DNA of 64,000 nt from an uncultured Acidimicrobiia bacterium. GTDB taxonomy: Bacteria; Actinomycetota; Acidimicrobiia; Acidimicrobiales; JAHEJN01. Each line of letters starts with the position of its first letter. Position 1 is the stretch's first letter. Of this stretch, positions 365-19,443 are shown piece after piece. The DNA lies in assembly GCA_964196475.1 (NCBI GenBank), contig CAXMUI010000026.1, positions 1,058-65,057 on the forward strand, given 5' to 3'. A model generated the notes under the pieces. The model worked only from the letters and a program-made list of their open reading frames with translations. It made no database searches and was not told the DNA's origin. A program made the translations under genes and the position numbers.

Positions 365-385
365 GCAGAGGGCCGATGCGGTCGG

Positions 386-2811: not shown

Positions 2812-3279
2812 TCGAGTGCTCCGGTTGATCTACATGAAAGAGCGGGCTTCGTAGCGAGCAGTGCGCCAGCACTACAGGTTGGGCCGGGTCCGCCCTGTTC
2901 ACGATCAAATGGACGAACCGGCCCGCTGAGTTCCATAAGGTATCAGTCTTGCTGAATCTTCTGTGAATGCGTCTGCTAGTCGGTTTCACAAACAACGCGC
3001 CATGTCGCTAAGTCAACGAAGGCGGGCGTAGCGTTCGCAATCACCAAGCCGGTCGCCGGTACTGGTCCGTGTCAGGGCTTCCCACCACCGCTGGGGAGCC
3101 CTTCTCTCGCGCAATAATCGCTGCGTGGCAAGCGTGGCTGCCGTGATCGGTGATAATTGCGCCGAACGGCGCAGGACATAATCGACACGGCTCGGCGGCC
3201 GTTGTCTAACAAAGGGTCGGCGATACTACCTGGCCGATTGCATGGAATTGGATGAGTCGCGGAGTCCTGGGTTCGTCAT

Positions 3280-4242: not shown

Positions 4243-4297
4243 CTTGACGACTGTTGAGTGTTGTTGCCGACCACAGTGGCCCGGCCCGGCATTAACT

Positions 4298-4312
4298 GAT
4301 CATTTTATGATC
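4298..4312. promoter_or_regulatory. candidate operator: perfect 6-3-6 inverted repeat GATCAT-TTT-ATGATC in the GntR/ABC divergent promoter
   Basis: Read directly from the sequence. It lies in an AT-rich patch of the 219-bp divergent intergenic region (4243-4461). Confidence 0.3.
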
Positions 4313-4461
4313 CACAAGACGAGCATAGGTGGCCCCGAGACGAATCTGAAGGTTGATGACAATTTAACGTTTATGGACAAACCACTTGCCGAAGATGTAA
4401 CACGTGGCTACGGTGAGGGTACTGTCACTTACAGAGAGACAGATATCGCTAGGGGAATTCT

Positions 4462-5457
4462 ATGAAGAAGACACTGCTAATGCTGCTCGCCATACTGGGA
4501 GTGTTCGCACTCCTAGCTGGTGCATGTGGCTCAGACGATGACGACGGGGCTGATGGGCTTCGTGTTGCTTTGGTCCTGCCCGGCTCGGCGAACGACAAGG
4601 GCTTTAACCAGCTCGCGTTCGAGTCTCTACCGATTCTTGAGGCCAAATTTGGAGCGGAGACAGCGTTCTCCGAGTTGACGCCGGTCAATGAATTTGTCCA
4701 GGCGTTTGAGGATTACGCGAACGATGGCTATGACGTCGTAATCGGGCAGGGATTCGAGTTTGGTGAGATTGCGGCCGAGGTCGCTCCCGAATTCCCTGAC
4801 ACGATCTTCCTCGTGACAAACCATCCCGATACCTCCGGGCCAAATATGCAGGGGCTCCAGCCCGCATCCCAACATGCTGCGTTCCTGGCCGGTGTGGCTG
4901 CAGGCATGGCAACGGAAACGAACAAGGTCGGCGGCATCGCCGGATTCGCATTCCCAGTAATCGTTGCCCAGATGGAGGCCTTCGCACTCGGGGCCAAGTC
5001 GGTCAATCCCGACATTGAGGCGACAATCACCTACCTCGGAACGTTCGACGACGTTGAGGCCGGCAAGGAGACCGCCCGCGCGATGATTTCAGCTGACGTC
5101 GATGTCGTCTACCACATCGCTGATGCTGCTGGTCTCGGAGTAATCCAGGCCGCTCGAGAAGAGGGTGTCTACGCAATTGGCTGGGGTGGTGACCAAACCG
5201 AGGTCGCTCCCGAAACGGTCCTTACATCACAGATCGTCGATCAGACGCTCCTAATTGTCGAGGCAATCCAGTCGGTCGTCGATGGGACGTTCGAAGGCCA
5301 GCAGCGTTTCTTCAGCCTGGCTTCACCAGTGCTGGGGTTGGCCCCGATTCGTGTGATCGACAACGCAGCTGAAATCGAGGCGAGAGTTGCAGAGGTCGAG
5401 GCCGGAATCCTCGATGGCTCGATCGAGGTTCCGTTCATCACTGAGCCAACAAGTTAA
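4462..5457 (+). CDS. BMP-family (PnrA/Med-like) ABC transporter substrate-binding lipoprotein
   Basis: Lipoprotein signal MKKTLLMLLAILGVFALLAGAC. LVLPGSANDKGFNQ, GYDVVIGQGFEF and GGIAGFAFPVI segments are typical of basic-membrane-protein nucleoside binders. RBS AGGGGA lies upstream. Confidence 0.85.
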   Translation: MKKTLLMLLAILGVFALLAGACGSDDDDGADGLRVALVLPGSANDKGFNQLAFESLPILEAKFGAETAFSELTPVNEFVQAFEDYANDGYDVVIGQGFEFGEIAAEVAPEFPDTIFLVTNHPDTSGPNMQGLQPASQHAAFLAGVAAGMATETNKVGGIAGFAFPVIVAQMEAFALGAKSVNPDIEATITYLGTFDDVEAGKETARAMISADVDVVYHIADAAGLGVIQAAREEGVYAIGWGGDQTEVAPETVLTSQIVDQTLLIVEAIQSVVDGTFEGQQRFFSLASPVLGLAPIRVIDNAAEIEARVAEVEAGILDGSIEVPFITEPTS

Positions 5458-5475
5458 TCCAAGCGAGCCGTACAG

Positions 5476-7005
5476 ATGGGACCCCCGCCGAAGCCCGCGC
5501 CCGGGTCCCATCTGCTCGCGCTCGCCGACATCTGGAAACGTTATGACGCCACGGTCGCGCTAAGCGGCGCATCACTCGAAATCGAGCGGGGCGAAATCCA
5601 TGCCCTTCTCGGCGAGAACGGTGCCGGCAAGACAACGTTGATGAATGTCCTCGATGGCATCACGCTGCCGGACTCGGGCACCATCACCTGGTCGGACACT
5701 GAGGTGGAAATCGACTCGCCGAAGAGCGCGGTGAGCCTCGGCATTGGCATGGTCCATCAGCACGATCGGCTGGTCCCGGCCCTTACGGTGTGGGAGAACA
5801 TTGCACTCGCCGTCGGTACGTCTTTTAAAATCTCGCGAGACGAGATCGCCGAACATCTCGCCGAACTGACCGAACGTTATGGCGGCGTTATCAATCCGGA
5901 TGCACTCGTCAGCGATCTGTCTGTGGGGGAACGGCAATGGGTAAGCCTTCTCCGAGCGTTGGCGGGAGAGGTCAAGTTGCTGGTGCTCGACGAGCCCACG
6001 TCGACGCTGACCCCAATTGAACGAGATCGCTTGTTCGTAGCCCTGCGGCACTATCGGGCGGCTGGGCTGAGTGTGATCTTCATTACCCACAAGCTCGATG
6101 AGGTCTTCGCCCTTTGCGACCGGGTCACGGTGATGCGCGGAGGAGAAACGGTGTCTACGTTTGACGTTGCATCGACTACCCACGCGCAGTTGGTGCAGTC
6201 GATGGTTGGCCGGGCAGTGGACACAGACTTCGACCGCGCTCCATCGGAGCGTGGCGAAATTCTCCTGCAAGTCGAGTCGCTGTCGGTGCAAGGAGCACGA
6301 CAAACGATTGTGAACCTAGATCTCGAGGTGTCCCGAGGAGAGGTAGTCGGTATCGCCGGTGTTGATGGCAACGGCCAAGGGGAACTGATCGAAGTGATCT
6401 GCGGTGTCCGAGAGGCCGCTGCAGGTGCGGTGACGTTCGGAGATGAACACCACGGCTGGCACAATGGGCGAGCGGCATCGGTGGCCCGAATCCCCGAAGA
6501 TCGCCATCGGCATGGTCTCGCGTTGGGGCTGCCACTCTGGGAGAACGTTCACCTTGGGCGATTCCGAAATCGAGGACTCGTCCGCAATGGCTTCCTGAAT
6601 AGCCGGCGTGCCTATGAGGCGTCAGAAGCCATGCTCGAGGCATTCGATGTGCGCTGCAGCAGCCCAGATCAACCGTCTGGTGAGCTGTCCGGAGGCAATC
6701 AGCAAAAGGCCGTGCTGGCTCGTGAGCTAAGCGATGATCCGGACCTCGTTGTCGCTATGAATCCGTGTCGAGGACTTGATATCGGCGCGGCCAGATTTGT
6801 TTTGGATCAGCTTGTCGCCGTGCGCGACAGAGACGGCGGCGTCTTGTTCGTCTCCTATGACCTTGACGAGATACTCGCCATATCCGATCGGATCCTCGTT
6901 ATGGCCTCAGGCCGGATCGCTGGTGAGCTCAAGCCAGGGCCCGACGTTATTGAACAAATCGGTCTACTAATGGGTGGGGCAGAAATTGGAGTGAAGGCGC
7001 AGTGA
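5476..7005 (+). CDS. ABC transporter ATP-binding protein, duplicated ATPase cassette
   Basis: 509 aa. Walker A GENGAGKTT, signature LSVGERQ, Walker B LLVLDEPT. The second cassette has LSGGNQQK. Confidence 0.9.
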   Translation: MGPPPKPAPGSHLLALADIWKRYDATVALSGASLEIERGEIHALLGENGAGKTTLMNVLDGITLPDSGTITWSDTEVEIDSPKSAVSLGIGMVHQHDRLVPALTVWENIALAVGTSFKISRDEIAEHLAELTERYGGVINPDALVSDLSVGERQWVSLLRALAGEVKLLVLDEPTSTLTPIERDRLFVALRHYRAAGLSVIFITHKLDEVFALCDRVTVMRGGETVSTFDVASTTHAQLVQSMVGRAVDTDFDRAPSERGEILLQVESLSVQGARQTIVNLDLEVSRGEVVGIAGVDGNGQGELIEVICGVREAAAGAVTFGDEHHGWHNGRAASVARIPEDRHRHGLALGLPLWENVHLGRFRNRGLVRNGFLNSRRAYEASEAMLEAFDVRCSSPDQPSGELSGGNQQKAVLARELSDDPDLVVAMNPCRGLDIGAARFVLDQLVAVRDRDGGVLFVSYDLDEILAISDRILVMASGRIAGELKPGPDVIEQIGLLMGGAEIGVKAQ

Positions 7006-8099
7006 CTTCAAAACGCGACGCGTTGGGTTTGGTGTTGCTCGGACGAGAGTCGTTCGTCGTCAGCGCGGTAATCATTCTCGGACTCTTGCTGTCCCTCGTC
7101 ATGCTGGCCGTTACGGGAGCCGACCTGGGCGAAGCGCTCCCGGCCCTGCTATCTGGCTCAGTCGGCGATGCTCGGGCGATCGAGGAGACGCTCAGCCAGT
7201 CGGTGCCGATCATGTTCGTCGGGTTGGGTGTAGCGGTCGGCCTTCGTGCGGGACTGTTTAACATCGGTGGCGAAGGACAGATTTATGTGGCGGCGCTAGC
7301 CGGGATTGTGGTGTCGCAATGGCTGCCAGTCGACGTGCCGGTTCTCGCCGTGGCGTTGCTGTTGGTCGTCGGGTTCATCGCGGGCGGCATTTGGGCCGCC
7401 GCTGCTGGTTGGATGCGAGCGTACTTGCACATGAATGAGGTCATAACGACGATCTTGTTGAATGGCATCGGCTTCCTGCTCGCAAGCTGGGCCATCCACG
7501 GTCCACTTCGAGATCGAGATGGAGGCGGATTTCCGTGGTCGGAGAAGATCGGTGAGCCCTTCCGCTTGCCCATACTCGACATCGGCCCGCTGACTATGCC
7601 CTCCGGGTTCCTATTGGCCTTGTGCGCTGCGGTCATCGTCTGGATCTTTCTTGACAAAACGGTGATCGGTGTTGAGCTACGAACCCTGGGCGACAACCGA
7701 GATGCCGCCGCTTACGCCGGCGCCCGGGTTCCGTTGCTCGTCATCGTTGCCATGGGTTGTGCCGGTGCGTTGGCCGGGATCGCTGGCGTTGTTGAACTAT
7801 CAGGTAGTCAGGAGCGACTTAGCGATTTCTTCTCTCCTGGATACGGCTTCACTGCTATCGCCGTTGCCCTCGTAGGAAATGCGCGAGCGGGCGGGGTTGT
7901 GCTTGCCGCACTGTTCTTTGGGGCGCTGACCGCTGGAGCGTCTTCGATGGAGCGCATCGCTCAAGTGCCCGCGTCGACGAGTCTGGTCGCCCAGGCAATC
8001 ATCGTCGCGCTTCTGGTCGTCGCCCGGTCAGAACGTCTCGGGCGCTGGGTTCGCGCCCGCCGGCAACTGGCCGCTGCCCTTGATGGGCAGGTGACATGA
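7002..8099 (+). CDS. ABC transporter permease (BMP/ribose-type)
   Basis: 365 aa polytopic hydrophobic protein. Its GTG start overlaps the upstream stop (GTGA). Confidence 0.85.
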   Translation: MTSKRDALGLVLLGRESFVVSAVIILGLLLSLVMLAVTGADLGEALPALLSGSVGDARAIEETLSQSVPIMFVGLGVAVGLRAGLFNIGGEGQIYVAALAGIVVSQWLPVDVPVLAVALLLVVGFIAGGIWAAAAGWMRAYLHMNEVITTILLNGIGFLLASWAIHGPLRDRDGGGFPWSEKIGEPFRLPILDIGPLTMPSGFLLALCAAVIVWIFLDKTVIGVELRTLGDNRDAAAYAGARVPLLVIVAMGCAGALAGIAGVVELSGSQERLSDFFSPGYGFTAIAVALVGNARAGGVVLAALFFGALTAGASSMERIAQVPASTSLVAQAIIVALLVVARSERLGRWVRARRQLAAALDGQVT

Positions 8100-9031
8100 T
8101 GGACGCGCTGATCGAACTCTTCATCTCGACGGCATTCGTCGCCAGCACGCTGCGACTTGCGGTCCCACTCATGCTGGCCGCTACTGGCGAGGTCATTTCC
8201 GAACGAGCCGGAATCCTGAACATCGGGCTTGAGGGAATGATGTTGATGGGGGCGTTTACCGCAGTCATCGGCGCTGATTTGACCGGGAGTCCGTGGCTGG
8301 GAGCGATCGCAGGTGCGGCCGGGGGAGCAGCGCTGGCATCAATCCACGGCGTAATCGTGATCAGGTGGGCCGGCGATCAAGTTGTAAGCGGGCTCGCTCT
8401 AAACCTCGGTGCGCTTGGGCTTACCACGTACCTGTCTCGCAAGATTCTGGGTACCGAGCAGACCGAGGTCGCACACTTTGAACCGGTAAATATCCCAATC
8501 TTGTCGGATCTGCCATTCTTCGGGCCCACTGTCTTCGGGCAATCCCCGTTCTTCTACTTCGCGATAGCTATGGCCGGCATGTTGAGTTGGGTTCTGTTCC
8601 GTACGCGTCTTGGCCTCGCGTGGCGGTCGGCGGGCGAAGATCCTGACGCCCTCGACAGCGTCGGCGTGTCGGTCGCTCGTACACGCTGGACGGCACTGCT
8701 GGTGTGCGGCGCGATGGCCGGCCTGGGCGGAGCCTCGATATCGTTGGCACAGCTGTTCACTTTCATCGAGAACATGACCGGCGGCAGTGGCTTCATCGCC
8801 CTGGCATTGGTGATCGTGACTAGGTGGCGTCCGCTGTGGGCTGTGGGTGTTGCCACCTTCTTCGCGAGTGCCGACGCATTGGCGCTCAGGATCCAAGCAC
8901 TTGACGTCGTCGATATACCGTTCCAGATCTCGCTCATGATTCCGCTCGTGCTGACCCTCGTCATGTACGGATTCGCGGCACGCGCTGGCCGCTCGCCGGC
9001 GGCACTCGGCCGTTCGTGGCTTAAGTCCTGA
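8096..9031 (+). CDS. ABC transporter permease (second subunit)
   Basis: 311 aa polytopic protein joined to the upstream permease by an ATGA overlap. Confidence 0.85.
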   Translation: MMDALIELFISTAFVASTLRLAVPLMLAATGEVISERAGILNIGLEGMMLMGAFTAVIGADLTGSPWLGAIAGAAGGAALASIHGVIVIRWAGDQVVSGLALNLGALGLTTYLSRKILGTEQTEVAHFEPVNIPILSDLPFFGPTVFGQSPFFYFAIAMAGMLSWVLFRTRLGLAWRSAGEDPDALDSVGVSVARTRWTALLVCGAMAGLGGASISLAQLFTFIENMTGGSGFIALALVIVTRWRPLWAVGVATFFASADALALRIQALDVVDIPFQISLMIPLVLTLVMYGFAARAGRSPAALGRSWLKS

Positions 9032-9044
9032 TCGGAGCGCTTGC

Positions 9045-10076
9045 TTGCTCGTATTTGCTTCCGAGGCCCATCGCCTGCACAACCCCACCGAGCCGCACCT
9101 CTTCGCGGGGATTGCTCAACCGCCCCGCGAGAACGTTGAGCGCGCCGACGTGATCCGAGAGGCGGTGCAGTCGCTGGTCACGCAAGACATCCGCGAACCC
9201 GCGCCGATCGATCTCGACCTGCTTGGGCAAGTGCACCAACTTCCGTACCTCGAGTTTCTTCGCACAGCTCATGCCAACTGGTGTGCGCTGGTCGGCAACG
9301 ATGGAAGTGGTGAGGCGATGCCATTTGTGCGGCCGATGCTCGGGTCGCCGTTCACCGCCTCAGATCACGTGCTGGCCCAGATGGGCCGATATTCGAACGA
9401 CGCCGATCCTATTCTCGCTGGGACGTGGGAAGCGGTGAACGCGGGAGCGGCATGCGCGGCCAGCGCCGCGGCGGCCGTGCTATCGGGCACTGCGGAGGCC
9501 GCATATGCGCTGGTCCGACCCCCGGGCCATCATGCCGGGCCCGAAACCTATGGTGGTTACTGCTATCTCAACAACACCGCCATCGCAGCTCAGTTGGCTT
9601 CAGATGCCGGCGGACGCGTCGCGACCCTTGACGTCGACACCCATGCCGGCAACGGAACTCAAGCGGTATTTTGGGAGCGCTCCGACGTGATGTCGGTGTC
9701 TCTACACGTTGATCCTGCGGTTGAGTACCCCTACTTTCAAGGCCACGCCCACGAACACGGTGCTGGCGCGGGGGAGGGGTTCAACCGAAACTTTCCTATG
9801 GCAAAGGGCACCGACTGGTCTGGGTACGAACCCGTGCTCGATGCAGCTTGCGAAGCGGTCACCGAATTCGGCGCAGAAGTGGTCATCGTGGCCCTGGGTG
9901 TCGACACCGCAGTCGAAGACGGTGTGTTGGCCTTGGCCGGAGACGACTACAGACGACTCGGAGCACGACTTGCACGGATCGGTCGACCAACCGTGCTCGT
10001 GCAAGAGGGTGGCTACGACCTGTCGGTGTTGGGGCGAAACGTCGCCGCTGTTCTTGAGGGCTTCGAAGCTGTCTGA
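9045..10076 (+). CDS. histone-deacetylase-family Zn amidohydrolase (acetylpolyamine/acetoin-utilisation type)
   Basis: RPPGHHAGPETYGGYCYLNN and LDVDTHAGNGTQ motifs of arginase/HDAC-fold deacetylases. TTG start with GGAGC RBS at 9034. Confidence 0.8.
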   Translation: MLVFASEAHRLHNPTEPHLFAGIAQPPRENVERADVIREAVQSLVTQDIREPAPIDLDLLGQVHQLPYLEFLRTAHANWCALVGNDGSGEAMPFVRPMLGSPFTASDHVLAQMGRYSNDADPILAGTWEAVNAGAACAASAAAAVLSGTAEAAYALVRPPGHHAGPETYGGYCYLNNTAIAAQLASDAGGRVATLDVDTHAGNGTQAVFWERSDVMSVSLHVDPAVEYPYFQGHAHEHGAGAGEGFNRNFPMAKGTDWSGYEPVLDAACEAVTEFGAEVVIVALGVDTAVEDGVLALAGDDYRRLGARLARIGRPTVLVQEGGYDLSVLGRNVAAVLEGFEAV

Positions 10077-10079
10077 GAG

Positions 10080-11459
10080 TCAGCGAGCCAGCAGAGAGAG
10101 GTCGGAAAGGCCCGCTCCCGCGACCAGTGAACGCGCCAGTTCCCTCGATCGAGCAACCACTTCGGCCTGGTCGACGTTTGTGATCTCGCCATCGTCCACC
10201 GAGCGCTCGCCCGCGACCCAGACCTGTTTCACGTCTGTGGGAGATGCGCAGTAGGCAATCTTCTGGAACGGGTCGTGCACGTTAACGAGTGCCGGTGCAT
10301 CGCCGTCGAACACCACGAGATCTGCCTGTTTACCGGTTTCGATCGAGCCGACGATGTGGTCGAGTTCGAGGGCGGCGGCTCCCTCGATAGTCGCCATCCG
10401 CAGCACGTCGCGGGCGCCAAGCGCAGTGGTTTCGAGATGTTCGATGCGTTGGAGAAGAACCGCCGACTTCATCGTCTCGAGATAGTTCTGACTGTCGTTG
10501 CTCGCGGGTCCGTCGACGCCCATACCAACGTCAATACCGAGGCGGCGGAGTTCTGGTACTGGGCACACCCCTGATGCAAGGATCATGTTGGCAACGGGAT
10601 TGTGGGCAACGCCGACTCCGTTGGCCGCCAGTATGTCGCGATCAGCAGCGTCGACCCAGACACAGTGCGCAGCAAGCGTTGGAGCGTTGAATGTGCCGAC
10701 TCGCTCGCAGTGCGCAATGGGGGTCACTCCATGCAAGTTGCGCGTCGCAGTGACTTCGTCGCGTATCTCTTGGAGGTGGATATGCACACCGTGACCCCCG
10801 TTGACCGCCAAGTCTGTGGTGTTCAAGAACATTTCGTCGGTCTGAGAGCCGAGCGCAGCGACCCCGACTCGGAATCGGCACAGTCGACTGGCTCGAGCCG
10901 CTTCGAGGAGCGCCGCGTGTTCGTCCATCACCATTGGGATCGATGCTGGTCCGATGTCGCTTGCACCGAAGGAAACCACCCCGCGCAGACCGATCTCGTC
11001 CAGCGCGTCGACGACGGCCGGCGTGATCGGGCCGTTTACCGGCGCACAGACGAACATGTCGTTCGCTGTGGTGATGCCGCTCCGGAGCATTTGCATGCTC
11101 GACAACAGCGTGCCGACGTAGGCCATTTCGTGGTTCAACACGGGGTTGATCGCCAGAATGACGTTCTGAATCCATTCCCACAGGGTGTACTGCTCGGCGA
11201 TTCCCGCGACCAAGGCCTCAGAAAAATGACCGTGAGTATTCACGAATCCTGGTGTCACGATGTCGTGGGGTCCGCCGGTCACAGTATCGCCGGGGTATCT
11301 AGCCGAAAGTTCGACCCAGGTACCTACGTCGTCGATCATCTCGCCGACAATACGAACCGCTCCGTCGGTGATCACTTCCGGTGTGGCCGAGGTGATGATG
11401 TGGGCACCGCGGACGAGTATGCCGGATTCTTTTGAGCCCTGTCCCTCTGTCACTTGCAT
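10080..11459 (-). CDS. metal-dependent amidohydrolase, TRZ/ATZ / nucleobase-deaminase-like
   Basis: 459 aa. GFVNTHGHFSE (HxH), GHGVHIHLQE and VAHNPVANM segments are typical of the chlorohydrolase / MTA-SAH / guanine deaminase group. Confidence 0.8.
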   Translation of the reverse strand: MQVTEGQGSKESGILVRGAHIITSATPEVITDGAVRIVGEMIDDVGTWVELSARYPGDTVTGGPHDIVTPGFVNTHGHFSEALVAGIAEQYTLWEWIQNVILAINPVLNHEMAYVGTLLSSMQMLRSGITTANDMFVCAPVNGPITPAVVDALDEIGLRGVVSFGASDIGPASIPMVMDEHAALLEAARASRLCRFRVGVAALGSQTDEMFLNTTDLAVNGGHGVHIHLQEIRDEVTATRNLHGVTPIAHCERVGTFNAPTLAAHCVWVDAADRDILAANGVGVAHNPVANMILASGVCPVPELRRLGIDVGMGVDGPASNDSQNYLETMKSAVLLQRIEHLETTALGARDVLRMATIEGAAALELDHIVGSIETGKQADLVVFDGDAPALVNVHDPFQKIAYCASPTDVKQVWVAGERSVDDGEITNVDQAEVVARSRELARSLVAGAGLSDLSLLAR

Positions 11460-11604: not shown

Positions 11605-11646
11605 AAGATATTTAAATCGACCACAGCCCTAATTGGAGAGAACGAC

Positions 11647-13257
11647 ATGACACACGATGAACTTGACCTGGTTGTGATCAACGGGACGGTGGTGTTGGGT
11701 CAAGGGCAGCATCGCCTTGCAGTGGGGGTCAAAGACGGAAAGGTCGTTGCCCTCGCTCCCGAGGAATACCTCCCGAGGGCCAAAGAGACCATCGACGCAA
11801 GGGGCAACTACATCCTCCCCGGCATCGTTGACAGCGAAGCGCATCCTGGCTGCTACGTACCGTTCGAATACGACATGACCACCGAGTCCCGCGCCGCGGC
11901 CTGCGCGGGTGTAACAACCTGGGGCATTCAGGCTCCGACCACTCGACTGGGCAGCGAGCCTTTCAAGGAAGTTGTGTCAAAGAGCGATGTCGTGTCGTTC
12001 AACGAAACCTTCCCGGCCGGGCGTGACATTATTAACCGAGTCAGCCATGTCGACGCCTACCTGACCTACATGCTCGAAACCGACGAACAGGCTCACGAGA
12101 TCCCGCAGTACGCCGAAGAACACGGCGTCACCTCCTACAAGCTCTACCTCCAGACCCGCGGCATGAAGGGCATGGACGAGAAGATTGACACCAACTGGCC
12201 CAGTCGTCGCGCTGGTCTTGGCACCGGCATTGACGACGGCACGGTGTTCTTGGTCATGGAGAACGTCGCTTATTTGGGTGATCCCGGAATGGTGCACATT
12301 CATCCCGAGAACTGGGAAATTGGTCGCATCTTCGAGGATCGTCTCCGCGCCGCTGGCAGAACCGACTTCGGCGCCTGGACCGACCGGAGCCCTGACTTCC
12401 TAGAAGCCCAGCACATTCGTGCCTACTCCTATCTAGCCTCACAGACCCCTGGGCGAGTCCGTCTGTACTTGCAGCACTGCACCACGAAGCTTTCGTTCGA
12501 AGAAGTGGCGAAAGCCCGCGCTGAGGGCCTCGAGGTCTTCGCTCAAACCGGACCGGCATGGCTATGGGCCGAACCCGAAATGGGTTGGCGCATCAACGTG
12601 CCGCTGCGTCGTCGCGACAACATCGAAGCGCTCTGGGTTGCCATCGCTGAAGGAATCGTCGACGTTGTCGGTTCGGACCACGTCGTTGGCTGGGAGCCCT
12701 CATCCTATGAAGAGATGTACAGCCCCAACATCTGGGACTGTCGAACCGGTTTCAGCCGCGTTGAGCTCTTCCTCCCTGTGATGCTCTCTGAGGGTGTCAA
12801 TAAGGGTCGTATCCCGCTCGAACGGGTCGTGCAGGTCTCCTGCGAGAATCCCGCCAAGACCGCTGGATTGTGGGGCAAGAAGGGCTCGCTGCTACCGGGC
12901 TTTGATGCCGACATGGTTATCATTGATCTCGGCCGAGAGGTAACCGTGGGCAAGGAGCACCTCAACACCCGCTCGGGCTGGTCGATCATGGAAGGTCACG
13001 AGTTCACCGGATGGCCAATTAAGACCATCATGCGCGGGAAGGTAACCGCAGAATGGGCTGATGATTCACCGGGCATGCGCCCCGTTGGCGACGCCCGTGG
13101 CGAATACCTTCCCCGTACGCCGGGCACCAAGCGGCTTGGCCCCGAACTCACGAGCCAGACCCGCATCGCCAAGGGCGATCGTTGGTTGCCCGAGGACTGG
13201 ACACGGCCCGGATTCTGCGCAGAGACGCAGAAGTACACCGGCCCTAGGCAGGGCTGA
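11647..13257 (+). CDS. cyclic amidohydrolase, D-hydantoinase/dihydropyrimidinase-like (variant metal motif)
   Basis: Start moved to the ATG at 11647, which has a GGAGAG RBS. The family pattern is LPGIVDSEAHPG, TSYKLYLQ (carbamyl-Lys position), VHIHPEN and VGSDHVV. The first His of the usual HxH is Glu. Confidence 0.75.
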   Translation: MTHDELDLVVINGTVVLGQGQHRLAVGVKDGKVVALAPEEYLPRAKETIDARGNYILPGIVDSEAHPGCYVPFEYDMTTESRAAACAGVTTWGIQAPTTRLGSEPFKEVVSKSDVVSFNETFPAGRDIINRVSHVDAYLTYMLETDEQAHEIPQYAEEHGVTSYKLYLQTRGMKGMDEKIDTNWPSRRAGLGTGIDDGTVFLVMENVAYLGDPGMVHIHPENWEIGRIFEDRLRAAGRTDFGAWTDRSPDFLEAQHIRAYSYLASQTPGRVRLYLQHCTTKLSFEEVAKARAEGLEVFAQTGPAWLWAEPEMGWRINVPLRRRDNIEALWVAIAEGIVDVVGSDHVVGWEPSSYEEMYSPNIWDCRTGFSRVELFLPVMLSEGVNKGRIPLERVVQVSCENPAKTAGLWGKKGSLLPGFDADMVIIDLGREVTVGKEHLNTRSGWSIMEGHEFTGWPIKTIMRGKVTAEWADDSPGMRPVGDARGEYLPRTPGTKRLGPELTSQTRIAKGDRWLPEDWTRPGFCAETQKYTGPRQG

Positions 13258-13258
13258 T

Positions 13259-14014
13259 ATGGAAATGCCATGGGACGACGTCGTCTCAGATGAGGATCGC
13301 GAGATATTCGATATAGCTGGCTGGGGTAAGCGTGCTGGCTTCGGCGAGCGGCCTGCATTGCTGGTGATTGACGTCAACTACAACTTTTGCGGAGACAAGG
13401 AAGAGCCGGCTCTCGACTCGATCAAGAAGTGGCGCTACGCCTGCGGTCCGCAGGCGTGGCACACAGGGATTCCAGCGATTCAGCGAGTGCTGTCCGCTGG
13501 ACGAGCCAAGCGCCTGCCGGTGATTTACACCACCAACCCGCGACGCGACGATGGCTTCGACCTTGGTATCTGGACCCTTAAGAGCCACCGCTCCGACGAT
13601 GTTGTCGATGTCAGTGGCCACAAAGGCAACGACATCGTCGACGAGGTCAGCCCGGCTGAAGGCGACCTCTTCATAGAGAAGTGCAAGCCATCAGCGTTCT
13701 TCGGAACGACCCTTATGAGCCACCTCAACAATCTGCGGGCCGACTCGCTGATCGTGATGGGCACTACAACTAGCGGTTGTGTCCGGGCAACAGCAGTCGA
13801 CGCGCTATCCTTTGACATCAAGGTGACGATTCCGCACGAGACGGCGTTTGATCGTTCGCAGTTGTCGCACAAGGTCGCCTTGATGGATCTGCACATGAAG
13901 TACGTCGATGTCACCGATACAGACGATGTTGTCAATTATCTGGATTCGCTCGACACTGGCATATTTGACGAAGTCTGGCCCCCGGCGGCCAAGGCTGCGA
14001 AGGTCTCCGCATGA
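13259..14014 (+). CDS. isochorismatase-family cysteine hydrolase (RutB / N-carbamoylsarcosine-amidase-like)
   Basis: Start trimmed to the ATG at 13259 (MEMPWDD...). PALLVIDVNYNF supplies the Asp, EKCKPSAFF the Lys and GTTTSGCVRATAVDA the nucleophile Cys. Confidence 0.8.
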   Translation: MEMPWDDVVSDEDREIFDIAGWGKRAGFGERPALLVIDVNYNFCGDKEEPALDSIKKWRYACGPQAWHTGIPAIQRVLSAGRAKRLPVIYTTNPRRDDGFDLGIWTLKSHRSDDVVDVSGHKGNDIVDEVSPAEGDLFIEKCKPSAFFGTTLMSHLNNLRADSLIVMGTTTSGCVRATAVDALSFDIKVTIPHETAFDRSQLSHKVALMDLHMKYVDVTDTDDVVNYLDSLDTGIFDEVWPPAAKAAKVSA

Positions 14015-14586
14015 GCATTGTCATCCGCAGTTGGAGAGTTCAGATAACCGAGCAGCTTGTTGCTGAAGGAATCGAAGCCGAGACCCCATTACGCAAGGTC
14101 GTCGTTGCTGCCGTCATCGAGAACCCGTTTCTCGGGGGATACGTCGAAGATTTGTCCGAGGCGGTCGAATGGTCGGTTGGCTTCGGCTCAGACATCGGGC
14201 AGCGCGCAGTTGAGGCACTCGGCGAACCTGTGCAGGCCTATGGCAAGGGCGGAATCGCGGGCACGTCCGGTACGCAGGAACACGTGGTCGCGTTTGTGAC
14301 AACGCCATTCGGCAACGCTTTTCGCGATGCCGTGGGTGGTGGTGCGGCGTGGATCTCATCTGCGTCGATCTCCGGCTCAGCCGGGACGCCGCTCACGCTT
14401 CCGCTGGCAAACAAAGACGCTCTATTCGTTCGTGACAACTATGACGCTGTCACGCTATATCCCGGTGACGCACCGCGGCCCGACGAGATCGTCGTCGCTG
14501 TCGCAGTAGCTAATCGGGGTCGACTTAACGCCCGGCTCGGGGGCCTTGCGGCCAACGATCTTGTCGGGGAGGATGGGCTTTGGTGA
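14011..14586 (+). CDS. 'amino acid synthesis' family protein (PF06684/DUF1185-like), function unknown
   Basis: 191 aa. The pattern PLRKVVVAAVIENPF...AYGKGGIAGTSGTQEH...PLANKDALFVRDNYDA matches my recollection of the AA_synth family. ATGA overlap with the upstream gene. Confidence 0.65.
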   Translation: MSIVIRSWRVQITEQLVAEGIEAETPLRKVVVAAVIENPFLGGYVEDLSEAVEWSVGFGSDIGQRAVEALGEPVQAYGKGGIAGTSGTQEHVVAFVTTPFGNAFRDAVGGGAAWISSASISGSAGTPLTLPLANKDALFVRDNYDAVTLYPGDAPRPDEIVVAVAVANRGRLNARLGGLAANDLVGEDGLW

Positions 14587-14608
14587 CCACGGCTTTTAGG
14601 GAGACAAG

Positions 14609-15637
14609 ATGACCCAGTTAAACAAAGATGACCGACTGGCCGATTCGGCCTCAAAGATCAAAGCGCCCTTCACGGTTGATCCGACCATGCGGTTCTACTC
14701 TCCGCAGGAAAACGTCGACGCATTTGACCACCCTCGTGTAGCGCCCTACCTCGATTGGATCGCTAATAAATGGGAACCCCCCTCCGGGTCACCGAGGTTG
14801 GCACTCATTATTCCCTGCACCAAGTCAAAGCCGTATTCCACCAGCCGTGAGCACCGGAGCATCAATGGTGCCTTGCTCGATGCTGGTTGGGAGCCCGAAG
14901 GTACGGGCAAGCCGCCGGAGGGTCTCTACGACGCTATCGACGAAGGTGATGATCCTCGACTGCTCGATCTCAGCACAATGACCCGCAATGGTGTATCGCT
15001 CGATCGCATCGTGGTGTCGGAGCCGCTCGGTCTCGTGCCGTACACCGATGTGTACTCCTGGCAGGATGGCCCAAGCCCGGCGTCGGGATATGACGATCCT
15101 GGGTTGTTCGAATCTCGTGGTACTTCGGTGTCACCTTGGCGGGCCGATCACAGCGCTACACAGAACGCATCGGGCAAATGGACCTGGGGCCCTGCGGAAC
15201 GTGAGGCCTACGTCAGTGCCCACAACACTCTCGTCGACGTGATTCATACGACGCTGACCCGTGTGCGTGATCGTTACCTGGGTGTGGCTGCCTGGACATC
15301 GCCGGGCCTCACCCACCGAAGCTTCTTGATGGGCGAAGATCAGCGTCGCGCCGAGGGACTACCGCTTACTAGGCAGGGCACGACGGGTCCCTGCGCTTTG
15401 CGTGGAGTGTCGGATCTCACCCCGGGCCTGGTTGATATCTTGCCGACCACCGATCAGCTCAAGCAGTCGCGTGTCGATCTCGCGAAACGCCTGAAGAGCG
15501 AAGGCAGGACGCACTCTCCCGGGGCAGTCCGTGCCGTGTACGCCCGCGGCGACGGTCACGACACCCCGCTTGGGCTGCCAGAACTGCTTACCAATCTCAT
15601 GGCCTGGATCGACGAGCGGGCCAGCAGCGGCGCATGA
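14609..15637 (+). CDS. conserved hypothetical protein with ArcS/DUF5591 signature motif
   Basis: 342 aa with RBS GGGAGA upstream. Residues 69-82 read PCTKSKPYSTSREH, an exact match to PC-X3-KPY-X2-S-X2-H (nt 14813-14854). Confidence 0.7.
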   Translation: MTQLNKDDRLADSASKIKAPFTVDPTMRFYSPQENVDAFDHPRVAPYLDWIANKWEPPSGSPRLALIIPCTKSKPYSTSREHRSINGALLDAGWEPEGTGKPPEGLYDAIDEGDDPRLLDLSTMTRNGVSLDRIVVSEPLGLVPYTDVYSWQDGPSPASGYDDPGLFESRGTSVSPWRADHSATQNASGKWTWGPAEREAYVSAHNTLVDVIHTTLTRVRDRYLGVAAWTSPGLTHRSFLMGEDQRRAEGLPLTRQGTTGPCALRGVSDLTPGLVDILPTTDQLKQSRVDLAKRLKSEGRTHSPGAVRAVYARGDGHDTPLGLPELLTNLMAWIDERASSGA

Positions 15638-16839
15638 CCGACCATCCACACGGTCCCACAACAGCGATCGTCAATATTGGCACGCTCTTAACTGGAGATG
15701 TCGCAGAACCCCACGGCACCGCCGACTCGATCCTTATCGAAGAGGGCCTCATAACTGAACTGGGCGGCGTCGACGCGGCTCGGGCCGAACGAGTGATCAA
15801 CGTCGGCGGGGCCACGGTCGCGCCCGGCTTGATTGACTCCCACTGCCACGTTGTGCTGGGTGACTACACGCCTCGCCAACGAGCGATCGGGTTCCTCGAG
15901 TCCTACGTGCACGGCGGGATCACCTCATGTATCTCGCCGGGTGAAATTCACCTACCGGGACGACCTCATGATGCCGCAGGGGTCAAAGCCCTGGCGGTCC
16001 TCGCTCAACGGTCTTGGGCCAACTATCGACCCAACGGTATGAAGGTGCACGGTGGAGCAATCATCCTCGAACCGGTTCTGACCCGGTCTGATTTCGACGA
16101 AGTGGTTGCCGAAGGCGTCTGGTTGGCCAAATTCGGCTTCGGACTCTACGACGACCCCGCCGATGGTCTACAGCAAGTACGAGACGCGAAAGCGGCTGGC
16201 ATAAAGGTGATGGCGCACAGCGGTGGCGCTTCAATTCCAGGCTCAAAGCCAATTACCGCCGATCACCTCATGCTGCTGCAGCCTGATGTATGCGGTCACG
16301 TCAACGGTGGCCCCAGCTCGCTCGACGACGAAAAGCTTGATGTCCTTGTTCGCGAGACCGACCTCATACTTCAGCTAGTACAGGCTGGCAACCTCCGGTC
16401 GTCGTTGCGCATTATCGACACGGTGCGCGACATTGGAGCCGAACACCGGGTGATCATCGGGTCCGACACGCCAACCGGAACCGGCGTGATGCCTCTCGGA
16501 ATGATCAAAACCGTCGCCGAGCTTGCGTCGTTGGGTAATGTCGATCCCGGACTCGTTTGGGCTTGGGCATCCGGCGCTATCGCCGACGTATACGACCTGC
16601 CGACTGGCAAGATCGAGATAGGCCGCCAGGCCGACCTCGTTGTGGCCGACGCGCCATGGGGTTCTCACGGCGTGGGAGCGGTCGGCGCCCTTGCTCGCGG
16701 CGATATTCCTGGTATCAGTGCCGTGCTTATCGATGGAGAAGTACGAGCGCTCACTAGCCGCAATACACCAGCATCTGCTACACCCGTGGTGGTCGATCCG
16801 CACATGGATGACCCTTGCGGGTCTGAGCACGTGTGTTGA
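15634..16839 (+). CDS. metal-dependent amidohydrolase (enamidase / EF_0837-like subgroup)
   Basis: 401 aa. APGLIDSHCHVVLGDY (HxH), VMAHSGG and a C-terminal GKIEIGRQADLVV beta-sandwich closure. ATGA overlap with the upstream gene. Confidence 0.75.
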   Translation: MTDHPHGPTTAIVNIGTLLTGDVAEPHGTADSILIEEGLITELGGVDAARAERVINVGGATVAPGLIDSHCHVVLGDYTPRQRAIGFLESYVHGGITSCISPGEIHLPGRPHDAAGVKALAVLAQRSWANYRPNGMKVHGGAIILEPVLTRSDFDEVVAEGVWLAKFGFGLYDDPADGLQQVRDAKAAGIKVMAHSGGASIPGSKPITADHLMLLQPDVCGHVNGGPSSLDDEKLDVLVRETDLILQLVQAGNLRSSLRIIDTVRDIGAEHRVIIGSDTPTGTGVMPLGMIKTVAELASLGNVDPGLVWAWASGAIADVYDLPTGKIEIGRQADLVVADAPWGSHGVGAVGALARGDIPGISAVLIDGEVRALTSRNTPASATPVVVDPHMDDPCGSEHVC

Positions 16840-16865
16840 GATCCAATTCCAACTAAAGGACTGTG

Positions 16866-17471
16866 ATGGAAAACGTTGTCGAGGAAGTGCTCGTGCCAGC
16901 CTCTGAAGGGCGCGGAATCCGAGTCAAAGCGGGGCAGATACTTGACATCGTTGATGTCGAGGGTCATCAGGTTGGCGACCTTGTCGCCTACGTCGAAGCA
17001 GATCCGACCGAGTATCTCTCGCCGACCCATACGGTTTCGTGCAATCAGTCGGTGCAGTTGACTACGGGTTCAGAGGTGTTCACGAACCATCGGAACCCGA
17101 TCTTCACCATCGAACGCGATGATGTCGAAAAGCACGACATCATCGTCCCATGTTGTGACTATGAGCGATTCTTTCGTGATTACGGCCTCACCGACCACAG
17201 GCATTGCCTTGGCAATCTTGAGCAAGCTCGTGACCTGCTGGGTGTCGATTATGAGCTTCACGGAGAGCAGGCGTGGAACGTCTTCATGCACAATCGGGTC
17301 ACCGATGATGGCGCTGTGCTAACCGACCCGGCTGCCCACGAGGCTGGAGCCACGATCTCGCTGCGCGCCCACGTCGATTTGGTTGCGTTGCTCTCCGCGT
17401 GTCCCCAAGATCTGACTCCCTGCAACGACTTTAATTGCACACCAATGTTGTTGCGCGTGCGCGACGCATGA
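16866..17471 (+). CDS. DUF1989 (urea-carboxylase-associated / carboxyguanidine-deiminase-like) family protein
   Basis: VPASEGRGIRVKAGQILDIVDVEGHQVGDLVAY...HDIIVPCCD...HRHCLGNL...LLSACPQD matches the DUF1989 pattern. The ORF track starts at GTG 16863; I prefer the ATG at 16866. Confidence 0.8.
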   Translation: MENVVEEVLVPASEGRGIRVKAGQILDIVDVEGHQVGDLVAYVEADPTEYLSPTHTVSCNQSVQLTTGSEVFTNHRNPIFTIERDDVEKHDIIVPCCDYERFFRDYGLTDHRHCLGNLEQARDLLGVDYELHGEQAWNVFMHNRVTDDGAVLTDPAAHEAGATISLRAHVDLVALLSACPQDLTPCNDFNCTPMLLRVRDA

Positions 17472-18151
17472 CCGCCAGAGACCTTGCTAACGAGGTCGCG
17501 CACACGGCTCGCATGCTGGCCGCCGCTGGCTTGGTCGAGGCGTTTGGACACGTTTCAGCGCGGCGACCGGACGGCGGATTTCTTATCACCCCGACATCGC
17601 CACTCCATGAGGCCACCGCAGCCTCGATCATCACCGTTGATGACGACGGTGTCGTCGTAGACGATCCAAGTTCGGCCGCACCGATCGAGATCCCGCTTCA
17701 CACCGCGGTGTATCAAGCACGCCCCGATGTTGTAGCGATTTGCAGAGGGCATGGTCCATCCATGGTCGCCTGGGGTGTATCGCTCGATGATGTGCCACTG
17801 CTGCACGGCCTTGGGGCCATCGCCGGCGAGACCATCCCGGTGCATAACGACCTCGATTTAATCTCTTCTCCGGAGGCCGGTGATCGTGCAGCCCGAACCC
17901 TCTCCGACAACCATGCGGCCCTTCTGCTCGCAAATGGCGGCTTCGCCGTAGGTGCCAGCCTCCTGGAGGCGGCGACCCGCTTGTGGTTTACCGAAGAGCG
18001 TGCAACGGTTGCGCTCGCGGCCCGCACTGTCGAGCCGCCTGTCGGCGACTGGGGGCATCGGCTGACTCACAGCCGTATCGAACTCATTCGGGCCGAGGCC
18101 TGGTTCTCATCCCGTTTCACGTATTTAGCATCAACTACATCTCAGGAGTAA
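17468..18151 (+). CDS. class II aldolase/adducin-domain protein (aldolase or decarboxylase)
   Basis: Start trimmed to the ATG at 17468 (ATGA overlap). AAAGLVEAFGHVSARRPDGGFLITP and LHTAVYQARPDVVAICRGHG are typical class II aldolase segments. Confidence 0.8.
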   Translation: MTARDLANEVAHTARMLAAAGLVEAFGHVSARRPDGGFLITPTSPLHEATAASIITVDDDGVVVDDPSSAAPIEIPLHTAVYQARPDVVAICRGHGPSMVAWGVSLDDVPLLHGLGAIAGETIPVHNDLDLISSPEAGDRAARTLSDNHAALLLANGGFAVGASLLEAATRLWFTEERATVALAARTVEPPVGDWGHRLTHSRIELIRAEAWFSSRFTYLASTTSQE

Positions 18152-18153
18152 AC

Positions 18154-19443
18154 ATGGGACTCGAACGCCCCGAACCCGGTTCATCAATGAACGAAGCGGA
18201 GATGGAGTCTTACCGCGACGGGTTCATGGCGCACCTCGCCCAGACCGTGCCGGGACGCAAGGAACTCGTGGTCGAACAGGCACGAGGCTGCACGATCAAG
18301 ATGGCCGACGGTCACCTATATCTCGATTTCATCTCCGGTATCGCAGTCGCCAATATTGGCCACAGCCATCCGAAGGTCGTGGCCGCGGTGCAGGAACAGA
18401 TGGCCAACTACGCCCACGTAAATGTGTATGGCCGTTTTGCCCTCCCGCCGCAGGTGGAGATTGCCGAGCGGTTAGCACGAGTTGCTCCGGGCGATCTCGA
18501 TGTGGCCTTCCTCACCTCGACAGGCACCGAGGCCATCGAGGGCTCACTCAAACTGGCGCGCAAATACACCGGACGAAAACGATTCATCGCGTTTGAACGA
18601 GGATTCCATGGGCGTACTTTCGGGGCGTTGTCGGTGAGCTGGAAGCTGGCATACCGCGAGCCGTTCGAACCCCTCCTCGAAGGCGTTGACTTCGTTCCTT
18701 TCGACGATCTAGACGCCGTTGCCGCGATCATCGGCGACGACACAGCGGCCGTCATTATCGAGCCCATTCAGGGCGAAGGTGGCGTCCGCGTGCCCAGCGA
18801 CGACTTTCTTCCTGGACTTCGCAAGCTCTGCGACGACGCAGGAGCGCTGCTCATCTTCGATGAGGTGCAAGGAGCGATGGGCCGTACAGGTCATTGGTTC
18901 TCGTTCCAGTTATGGGATGTTGTCCCCGACATCGTCGTTTTGGCGAAGGCCTTCGGTGGCGGGCTCCCACTCGGAGCGTTTCTGTCGACAAGCGACATCT
19001 TCTCCACGTTCCTCGATCCGCCGTTGTCGCATCTGACCACGTTCGGTGGTAATCCAGTGGCCTGTGCTGCGGCTGTTGCGGCCTTCGACGTTATTGAGGA
19101 GGAAGATCTTCTCGCAGCGGCGCAACAAAAGGGAATCGAACTCAAGCGTCGCCTCGAGACGACAATGGAGCAGTTCCCGGAGTTCATCTCTGATGTGCGC
19201 GGCCGTGGCCTTTGGTTGGCTATCGACCTCCCACCAGATCTCAGTATGCCGATCGTGCGCGAGATGGAACGTCGCGGGGTCATCGTTGGAGCGATGTTGA
19301 GTTCTGACGGCACCGTGAGGATCGCCCCGCCCCTCACCGTCGCCGAGGCGGAACTCGATGTCTTCATCGGCGTACTCCGGGCATCGCTTCTCGCCGCTCG
19401 GGCCGGCAAACTCCCGGAACAGGCAGACGAAACAGACACGTAG
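18154..19443 (+). CDS. class III PLP aminotransferase (omega-amino acid / acetylornithine type)
   Basis: Start trimmed to the ATG at 18154 with an AGGAG RBS at 18144. LIFDEVQGAMGRTGHWF and the Schiff-base region DIVVLAKAFGGGLP are present. Confidence 0.85.
   Translation: MGLERPEPGSSMNEAEMESYRDGFMAHLAQTVPGRKELVVEQARGCTIKMADGHLYLDFISGIAVANIGHSHPKVVAAVQEQMANYAHVNVYGRFALPPQVEIAERLARVAPGDLDVAFLTSTGTEAIEGSLKLARKYTGRKRFIAFERGFHGRTFGALSVSWKLAYREPFEPLLEGVDFVPFDDLDAVAAIIGDDTAAVIIEPIQGEGGVRVPSDDFLPGLRKLCDDAGALLIFDEVQGAMGRTGHWFSFQLWDVVPDIVVLAKAFGGGLPLGAFLSTSDIFSTFLDPPLSHLTTFGGNPVACAAAVAAFDVIEEEDLLAAAQQKGIELKRRLETTMEQFPEFISDVRGRGLWLAIDLPPDLSMPIVREMERRGVIVGAMLSSDGTVRIAPPLTVAEAELDVFIGVLRASLLAARAGKLPEQADETDT

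Follow-up and report, generated by a model that had tools for sequence, protein, structure and literature searches.

A divergent bacterial relative of the archaeosine synthase core, encoded in a conserved, catabolic-looking gene cluster

Introduction

What does a bacterium do with a protein that carries the exact signature motif of the archaeal tRNA-modifying enzyme ArcS, when the gene for it is embedded among genes for hydrolases? The question is raised by a gene at positions 14609 to 15637 (plus strand, stop codon included) of a 64,000-nucleotide stretch of contig CAXMUI010000026.1, analysed here over its whole length (the window), which comes from an Acidimicrobiales metagenome-assembled genome. 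We use the working name D5591L both for its 342-residue product, a stand-alone protein resembling DUF5591, the C1 domain of ArcS, and for the bacterial family to which it belongs. The only known role of DUF5591 is that of a catalytic core which, in archaeal tRNA or in viral DNA, converts the nitrile of preQ0 to an amidine; the characterised DUF5591 enzymes all act on this nitrile, by addition of an amine (PMC10516641, PMC5699537). An earlier note on this DNA proposed small-molecule nitrile or amidine chemistry for the gene, for example on a 7-cyano-7-deazapurine, and knew of no catabolic or salvage role for the domain; we likewise found none in the literature. Here we report that D5591L is a genuine though strongly diverged homologue of the catalytic core of ArcS, the motif match not being due to chance, and that the family is co-inherited with a set of catabolic genes, a GntR regulator and an ABC importer.

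Results

The open reading frame runs from an ATG at 14609 to a stop codon ending at 15637 and encodes 342 residues; a Shine-Dalgarno-like GGGAG can be read 5 nucleotides 5' of the ATG (14599 to 14603, plus strand). Residues 68-82 are IIPCTKSKPYSTSREH, an exact fit to PC-X3-KPY-X2-S-X2-H, which is quoted as the motif of the ArcS C1 domain (PMC10516641, PMC5699537). The motif proper, residues 69-82 (PCTKSKPYSTSREH; 14813 to 14854, plus strand), follows strand beta-1 in the AlphaFold model. Both the frame and the motif had been read correctly in the earlier note, as the translation confirms. At the 3' end of the gene, the stop codon overlaps the start of the downstream enamidase-like hydrolase gene in an ATGA (15634 to 15637, plus strand), so the proposed translational coupling is real.

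We next asked how far the likeness to ArcS extends beyond the motif. Pfam PF17884 (DUF5591) matches D5591L with 28.2 bits (gathering cutoff 26, E 2e-6), and the NCBIfam ArcS equivalogs, whose cutoffs are 440 and 600, give it 26.3-26.8 bits. These matches span the motif-bearing 45-57 residues, so the evidence from the single sequence covers the motif region only. An alignment of 25 family members carries the comparison much further. With hhalign, it matches the C1 region of six canonical ArcS proteins at 98.8% (E 4.8e-17, query residues 36-257) and five groups of stand-alone DUF5591 proteins at 99.1-99.6%, the coverage extending from strand beta-1 to strand beta-4. The homologous region as a whole occupies residues 36-281 (14714 to 15451, plus strand; hhalign 98.5-99.6%). 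When full-length ArcS is used, only its residues 262-433 align, matching the 270-420 at which Pfam places DUF5591 in that protein, and its TGT-like, C2 and PUA parts are left unaligned. A Pfam scan of D5591L finds DUF5591 only; the lack of a TGT-like or PUA-like region noticed earlier thus stands, and the C2 region is likewise absent by these two comparisons.

A scan of distant relatives yielded three superfamily-wide motifs, PC-x3-KP[YWF], [ST][SE]P[LIM]G-x-[VI]P and YD-x-P, of which the second reads S137-E138-P-L-G-x-V-P and the third Y161-D162-x-P164 in D5591L. A fourth, (S/T)-H-R, lies after strand beta-3 and is common to D5591L, where it contains T235-H236, and the stand-alone DUF5591 proteins. 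The AlphaFold model of D5591L is a confident one (predicted local distance difference test 92.3, predicted template modelling score 0.91), and its predicted fold resembles known DUF5591 structures. The best Foldseek match in the PDB is AF0587 (2q07), with a probability of 0.82; a sequence search with canonical ArcS suggests that this is the sole solved DUF5591 protein. Among viral models the best match is the DUF5591 protein of Vibrio phage nt-1 (probability 1.00, target template modelling (TM) score 0.52), and in both libraries the top structural matches are the only DUF5591 entries. D5591L thus belongs to the DUF5591 superfamily, though not to ArcS.

Judged by sequence, D5591L is a tight bacterial family without a name. 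We collected 481 homologues of ~340 residues each, and relatives are encoded in 191 species genomes; members that bear any name are all called 'hypothetical protein'. A profile search of 1.84 billion cluster representatives retrieved only a handful of full-length 50%-identity D5591L clusters, followed by other DUF5591 proteins, canonical ArcS among them. The motif is intact in all 65 members compared from different genomes (40-74% identity), which bears out the earlier expectation that its Cys, Lys, Ser and His would be conserved. These 65 proteins share 40 invariant residues, including C70, K74, Y76, S79, E81, H82, S137, E138, Y161, D162, R170, H205, T235 and H236, and the blocks that mark the clade, YDDPGLFExRGTSVSP, WxWGPxER, SPGLTH and ARGDGxDTPL, are all invariant.

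Three regions set the family apart. Insertion 1 (residues ~95-128; 14891 to 14992, plus strand) and insertion 2 (residues ~166-195; 15104 to 15193, plus strand) appear as gaps in the hhalign alignments, the first having no counterpart there in ArcS or other DUF5591 groups and the second, LFExRGTSVSP...W.WGP, being almost invariant within the family. A helical C-terminal extension (residues ~282-342; 15452 to 15634, plus strand) contains the conserved block ARGDGxDTPLGLPE and matches nothing in the C2 or PUA domains of ArcS. In place of the nucleic-acid context, the conserved insertions probably provide a lid.

The survey of gene neighbourhoods shows a hydrolase-rich operon conserved across phyla. 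Partners were counted in the 51 related loci that extend for 10 kb to either side of D5591L, and importers and salvage genes in 80 loci. The most constant partner is a class III aminotransferase, found in 45 of the 51 loci, followed by TRZ/ATZ-family enzymes (44) and DUF1989 proteins (34); enamidase-like, class II aldolase-family and O-methyltransferase-family proteins occur in 33 loci each. A trio of hydantoinase-like, isochorismatase-family and PF06684 proteins is present in 31, a CrtI/amine-oxidase-like flavoprotein in 28, the GntR regulator in 24, an aldehyde dehydrogenase in 21 and a CN_hydrolase protein in 15. What stays constant is therefore an omega-amine aminotransferase accompanied by TRZ/ATZ-type deaminases and by an aldehyde dehydrogenase, a decarboxylase-like protein or both. 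Such a set is the signature of the catabolism of a nitrogen heterocycle that bears amino substituents and an aminomethyl-type side chain, not of nucleic-acid modification.

In the window, the cluster begins with the GntR-family regulator (3280 to 4242, minus strand), which is homologous to the GntR at the end of actinomycete clusters (33% identity to that of locus L003). It is followed by the importer that the earlier note had placed upstream and that proves to be a Bmp/PnrA-type ABC system of a binding protein, an ATPase and two permeases (4462 to 9031, plus strand). Next come a histone-deacetylase-family protein resembling acetylpolyamine amidohydrolase (9045 to 10076, plus strand; in 8 of the 51 loci) and a TRZ/ATZ-family aminohydrolase of the deaminase type (10080 to 11459, minus strand). 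The trio lies directly upstream of D5591L, all on the plus strand: the hydantoinase/dihydropyrimidinase-like cyclic amidohydrolase (11641 to 13257, start approximate; median identity 80%), the isochorismatase-family amidohydrolase, weakly similar to biuret hydrolase or RutB (13247 to 14014, start approximate), and the PF06684 (AA_synth/DUF1185) protein (14011 to 14586), whose gene is the immediate 5' neighbour. Matches of the Bmp protein, the TRZ/ATZ and hydantoinase-like enzymes and the methyltransferase to the PDB and NCBIfam are at family level and name no substrate.

Downstream of D5591L, also on the plus strand, the 401-residue enamidase homologue (15634 to 16839) matches PDB 2vun over its full length (E 1.3e-103); enamidase is known from the anaerobic nicotinate fermentation of Eubacterium barkeri. 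In Acidimicrobiia this gene is always accompanied by that for the DUF1989 protein (16863 to 17471), a relative of urea-carboxylase-associated (UAAP) proteins. The class II aldolase-family protein (17435 to 18151; Pfam Aldolase_II) has 3,4-dihydroxyphthalate decarboxylase as its best NCBIfam model and 2z7b (Mlr6791), the hydroxymethylpyridine-dicarboxylate decarboxylase of vitamin B6 catabolism, as its best PDB match. The two matches suggest an aromatic-acid decarboxylase, not a sugar-phosphate aldolase, and on this similarity the protein is probably a decarboxylase. The class III aminotransferase (18151 to 19443, start codon approximate; Pfam 366 bits) is nearest to acetylornithine and putrescine aminotransferases. 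Upstream of the GntR gene lie a PfkB-family kinase and a sulfatase gene (386 to 2811, minus strand), which are not kept with the cluster elsewhere.

The partner set varies with the lineage. It is nearly complete in Acidimicrobiia, which include the sponge-associated Candidatus Poriferisocius and Spongiisociaceae. Actinomycete loci always have the aldehyde dehydrogenase and usually the TRZ/ATZ deaminase, the aminotransferase and the methyltransferase. Besides an aminotransferase, an aldehyde dehydrogenase, TRZ/ATZ enzymes and an NMT1-like binding protein, the alphaproteobacterial loci encode a flavin monooxygenase, an HpaB-type monooxygenase with its reductase, an amidase, deacetylase-like proteins, a maleate-isomerase-like protein, an asparaginase and CobW. 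The hosts outside Acidimicrobiia include Actinocorallia, Microbacterium, Herbiconiux, Nocardioides, Mycolicibacterium austroafricanum and Chloroflexi, together with Kaistia, Parvibaculum, Maritimibacter, Pseudooceanicola and Ciceribacter among Alphaproteobacteria; no relatives were found in viral contigs.

In three Microbacterium species (loci L041, L044 and L046, ~280-7200) and one Nocardioides species (Nocardioides sp. YIM 152588, L067, ~1-6500), the cluster is adjoined by a PF10343 (Qng1-like) queuosine-salvage gene, an inosine-uridine-type nucleoside hydrolase gene and a Bmp ABC transporter. This salvage unit is transcribed divergently from the D5591L cluster and is 66-75% identical between species, so its carriers are not near-identical strains.

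Some further observations concern single loci and more distant proteins. A gene for a CobW/COG0523-type metallochaperone lies directly 5' of the D5591L homologue in five of seven alphaproteobacterial loci (in Parvibaculum sedimenti, L072 8596-9624), an adjacency that hints that one enzyme of the cluster needs a metal. The alphaproteobacterial version of the cluster, with one D5591L copy, is also carried on the 494-kb plasmid pRACO34Ac of Rhizobium sp. ACO-34A (L090 4800-24800), where the core genes are all annotated 'hypothetical protein' and a gene annotated as pyridoxal 4-dehydrogenase lies just 5' of the cluster. The metagenomic protein P0128 (730 residues), in which a LacI-type regulator (HTH plus periplasmic-binding domain) is joined to a C-terminal part resembling D5591L, may be either a true fusion or an artefact of gene calling. 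In a large group of DUF5591-like proteins of 270-370 residues (P0213, P0226, P0233, P0238-P0240, P0243, P0248, P0256 and others), PCAKTKPW replaces KPY, the motif Ser and His are missing and a YDNPGLF block is conserved; this group has no match in the phage genome collection. Of four queries from distant DUF5591 groups used in tblastn against phage genomes, two had no match and two matched only Sulfolobus and Methanobacterium viruses. The gene neighbourhoods of P0189 and P0201, two of the more distant relatives of the stand-alone type, were not informative. The sole Rfam match in the window and seven related loci was a glycine riboswitch aptamer (55 bits; L053 679-777), which lies ~9 kb from the D5591L homologue of Mycolicibacterium austroafricanum and is probably unrelated to the cluster.

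Discussion

A protein that retains all the motif residues, lacks the nucleic-acid-binding parts and sits in a catabolic operon suggests that ArcS chemistry has been recruited for a free metabolite. Our reading, in which we place about even confidence, is that D5591L would be a cytoplasmic, Cys70-dependent enzyme of the catabolic cluster that acts on a free heterocyclic intermediate at its nitrile or amidine carbon. The substrate would then be an intermediate derived from a nitrogen heterocycle, with an aminomethyl, nitrile or amidine group as its one-carbon nitrogenous substituent. By analogy with the action of the ArcS core on the preQ0 nitrile, Cys70, at the end of strand beta-1, would attack the nitrile or amidine carbon to form a covalent thioimidate, with Lys74, His82, Glu138 and Asp162 assisting as acid-base or binding residues. 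The thioimidate might be resolved by water, giving an amide or acid plus ammonia, or by an amine; a hydrolytic ArcS variant was earlier proposed for phage homologues (PMC6884629). In the rest of the pathway, trimming of the side chain would fall to the aminotransferase, aldehyde dehydrogenase and decarboxylase-like aldolase, while the TRZ/ATZ deaminases would strip amino groups from the ring. A pyrimidine-type ring would be opened and de-carbamoylated by the hydantoinase-like, isochorismatase-like and PF06684 proteins, and the enamidase homologue and the DUF1989 protein would open the remaining lactam.

Which heterocycle might this be? We tentatively propose that the pathway degrades or recycles 7-substituted 7-deazaguanines (preQ0, preQ1, queuine/queuosine and the archaeosine base), with D5591L converting the nitrile or amidine form towards 7-carboxy-7-deazaguanine. 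The nucleoside would first be imported and cleaved, and the flavoprotein would oxidatively cleave the secondary amine of queuine. The aminomethyl group would be converted to an aldehyde, then to an acid, and be lost by decarboxylation, while D5591L and the CN_hydrolase protein would turn the nitrile or amidine into the acid. The ring amino group would be deaminated and the pyrimidine ring opened and de-carbamoylated; in alphaproteobacteria a route of monooxygenase, amidase and maleate isomerase could open the residual lactam instead of the enamidase homologue. Such a scheme accounts for most partners in the cluster, and the adjoining queuosine-salvage unit is its sole direct genomic support. 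A bolder wording, which we offer as quite tentative, is that 7-deazaguanine bases released from tRNA and phage DNA could be broken down or recycled by this cluster, which would be the first such pathway, with D5591L performing hydrolytic or reverse ArcS-type chemistry on the free base.

Several points weigh against these proposals. On the side of the protein, the PF17884 match is limited to profile positions 3-44 of 150, and the Foldseek scores for the PDB match are modest (E 0.095, TM 0.25-0.31). The roles of the Cys, Lys and His in ArcS themselves rest on conservation, and we found no mechanistic or ligand-bound ArcS structure. Moreover, the phage ArcS2 that has been tested carries a degenerate motif, so conservation of the motif does not map simply onto activity. 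On the side of the cluster, the alphaproteobacterial enzyme set is largely different, importers vary by lineage (Bmp-type at 15 of the 80 loci, NMT1/THI5-like at ~35) and queuosine-salvage genes stand beside only 4 of the 80. The scheme offers no clear place for the methyltransferase or the CrtI-like oxidase, and the Rfam scan found no riboswitch in the window and the seven related loci that would name a ligand. Finally, 7-deazaguanines are scarce nutrients. The idea put forward in the earlier note divides into two parts: its preference for a small molecule over tRNA is favoured by an operon that looks catabolic and is conserved across phyla, while its example of a 7-cyano-7-deazapurine is a tentative candidate, given the few loci with salvage genes and the differing importers.

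A rather unlikely alternative, but the best of those we considered, is that the cluster degrades another heterocycle with an aminomethyl group and an amidine carbon, most likely the thiamine pyrimidine (4-amino-5-aminomethyl-2-methylpyrimidine or hydroxymethylpyrimidine, HMP) or a pyridine or vitamin-B6-like compound, with D5591L hydrolysing or transferring an amidine fragment such as an acetamidine-type product of ring opening. Removal of an aminomethyl group from a heteroaromatic ring would suit the aminotransferase, the aldehyde dehydrogenase and the Mlr6791-like decarboxylase, and nicotinate fermentation is the known setting of enamidase. The HpaB-type monooxygenase, amidase and maleate-isomerase-like protein of the alphaproteobacteria are typical of pyridine or pyrrole ring breakdown. 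NMT1/THI5-like binding proteins are also the commonest adjoining importer, in actinomycetes as well as alphaproteobacteria, but the matches behind this are weak (E 8.7e-5 for an actinomycete protein; no Pfam match at E 1e-4 for the Parvibaculum protein), and neither a thiamine pyrophosphate (TPP) riboswitch nor thiamine-salvage genes were seen in the window and the seven related loci. No characterised DUF5591 enzyme uses such substrates, and the Bmp-type importers and queuosine-salvage genes of other loci would be left unexplained.

Less probable again, and in our view improbable, is an enzyme acting on amidino or guanidino groups through a Cys-amidine intermediate, in the catabolism of polyamines or guanidino compounds (agmatine-like compounds, acetylated polyamines). 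ArcS was originally reported as an enzyme of the amidinotransferase type (PMC5699537), and several neighbours point the same way: the aminotransferase by its nearest relatives, the CN_hydrolase protein by its closeness to N-carbamoylputrescine amidase, the acetylpolyamine-amidohydrolase-like gene within the window, and the DUF1989 protein, whose relatives accompany urea and guanidine carboxylases. The CN_hydrolase and deacetylase-like genes, however, occur in a minority of loci (15 and 8 of the 51), the hydantoinase-like enzyme, the enamidase and the decarboxylase-like aldolase indicate ring compounds, and the Rfam scan revealed no guanidine riboswitch in the window or the seven related loci.

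A role on nucleic acids, with D5591L as a bacterial ArcS or ArcS2 that turns preQ0 in tRNA or DNA into archaeosine or a related base, is very improbable. It would agree with the exact motif and the DUF5591 homology, and stand-alone ArcS2 works on DNA without a PUA domain. Against it, folE, queC, queD, queE, dpdA, tgt and radical-SAM genes are all missing among the Pfam-annotated neighbours in the window and the annotated related loci; the ArcS equivalog scores fall far below their cutoffs; RNA-binding domains are missing; relatives were not found in viral contigs; and, across four phyla, D5591L is linked to hydrolases, an aminotransferase, a regulator and importers. A coincidental motif or a spurious reading frame can be dismissed on the profile and fold evidence over ~220 residues, and is contradicted as well by the 481 homologues, the 40 invariant residues, the conserved synteny and the confident model.

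If action on a free heterocyclic intermediate is correct, D5591L would provide the first metabolic function for the orphan DUF5591 domain, and the cluster an uncharacterised pathway of nitrogen-heterocycle degradation that is common in sponge-symbiont Acidimicrobiia, soil actinomycetes, Chloroflexi and rhizobia. Should the substrate be a 7-deazaguanine, the pathway would show how micronutrients of the queuosine family are destroyed or recycled in nature, a subject on which we found no paper, and DUF5591 would gain its first small-molecule substrate, along with a soluble and tractable model of its catalysis. The question is directly testable, since cultured carriers exist (Microbacterium aquimaris, Actinocorallia aurantiaca, Mycolicibacterium austroafricanum, Parvibaculum sedimenti and Kaistia dalseonensis).

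Comparison with known systems

ArcS acts on preQ0 at position 15 of archaeal tRNA together with arcTGT, with RaSEA as a partner in some archaea. In 2019, Yokogawa et al. reportedly found that ArcS transfers lysine and that the radical-SAM protein RaSEA completes archaeosine. The C1/DUF5591 core of the ArcS alpha subunit (NF040592, NF053620) is homologous to D5591L (hhalign 98.5-98.8%), and both have the identical PC-X3-KPY-X2-S-X2-H, the YDxP of motif 3 and a Rossmann-like alpha/beta core. In motif 2, the xSPLGxVP of ArcS becomes SEPLGxVP in D5591L, a change from Ser to Glu. D5591L further differs in lacking the TGT-like N-domain, C2 and PUA, in its two insertions and C-terminal extension, and in its bacterial host and metabolic context without a RaSEA partner among annotated neighbours. 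By score, domains, host and partners, it therefore falls outside ArcS (EC 2.6.1.97).

The viral ArcS2 proteins (VPFG_00169 of Vibrio phage nt-1 and STSV2_16 of the Sulfolobus virus) resemble D5591L in being a stand-alone core domain, and STSV2_16 shares with it both the full motif 1 and the SEP form of motif 2. They are shorter, with 185-226 residues, and lie beside dpdA and the preQ0-synthesis genes folE, queD, queE and queC, a context that we confirmed for nt-1. The nt-1 protein, whose motif is degenerate (LC-TTT-RPY-EN-S-RK-W), is the closest experimentally tested protein to D5591L and was shown to act on DNA-borne preQ0, giving dG+ in DNA (PMC10516641). With 342 residues, two insertions, an extension of ~60-85 residues, a non-viral host and no dpdA or preQ0 context, D5591L does not group with ArcS2 either.

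Motif 2 itself reads T-S-P-L-G in canonical ArcS (P0231, P0258, P0262, P0264 and P0269), S-E-P-[LIM]-[GA] in the D5591L family and nearly all stand-alone DUF5591 proteins, STSV2_16 included, and I-S-N-G-G in the dG+-forming nt-1 ArcS2; the comparison also took in L091:626-1183 and L093:31416-32096. We considered whether Glu or Ser in this motif predicts hydrolysis or aminolysis, the STSV2 protein (carboxy-form DNA) having Glu and canonical ArcS Ser, and make no such claim, as nt-1 has Asn together with its degenerate motif.

Among the other stand-alone proteins, AF0587 is the top PDB match of D5591L by both sequence and fold; a protein of no known function, it aligns with canonical ArcS over chain residues 30-296, which reach its C-terminus. 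At profile level nothing comes closer to D5591L than the archaeal-like stand-alone DUF5591 group (99.6% over query residues 33-289), which also has the (S/T)-H-R motif following strand beta-3. Both AF0587 and this group are without the two insertions and the ARGDGxDTP C-terminal block of D5591L. QueF and QueF-L, which form a thioimide on preQ0, and the Cys-Glu-Lys enzymes of the nitrilase superfamily have unrelated folds and are mechanistic analogues only, alike in the proposed addition of a cysteine to a nitrile or amidine carbon; by residue identity, the invariant Cys70, Lys74 and Glu138 of D5591L recall the nitrilase set.

Stand-alone DUF5591 proteins had thus already been described: AF0587, the archaeal stand-alone C1 proteins and the ArcS2 of phages and viruses are all known. 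Taken by itself the observation therefore has precedents, and the novelty that the earlier note saw in it was overstated. Our literature search found no description of the D5591L family or its cluster, and within that literature the bacterial clade and its catabolic operon are new, as the small-molecule role that they imply also appears to be. What is added here to the known DUF5591 systems is a longer bacterial clade, recognisable by its ~340 residues, its extra invariant blocks and its linkage to a class III aminotransferase and a TRZ/ATZ deaminase, together with the metabolic context in which it occurs.

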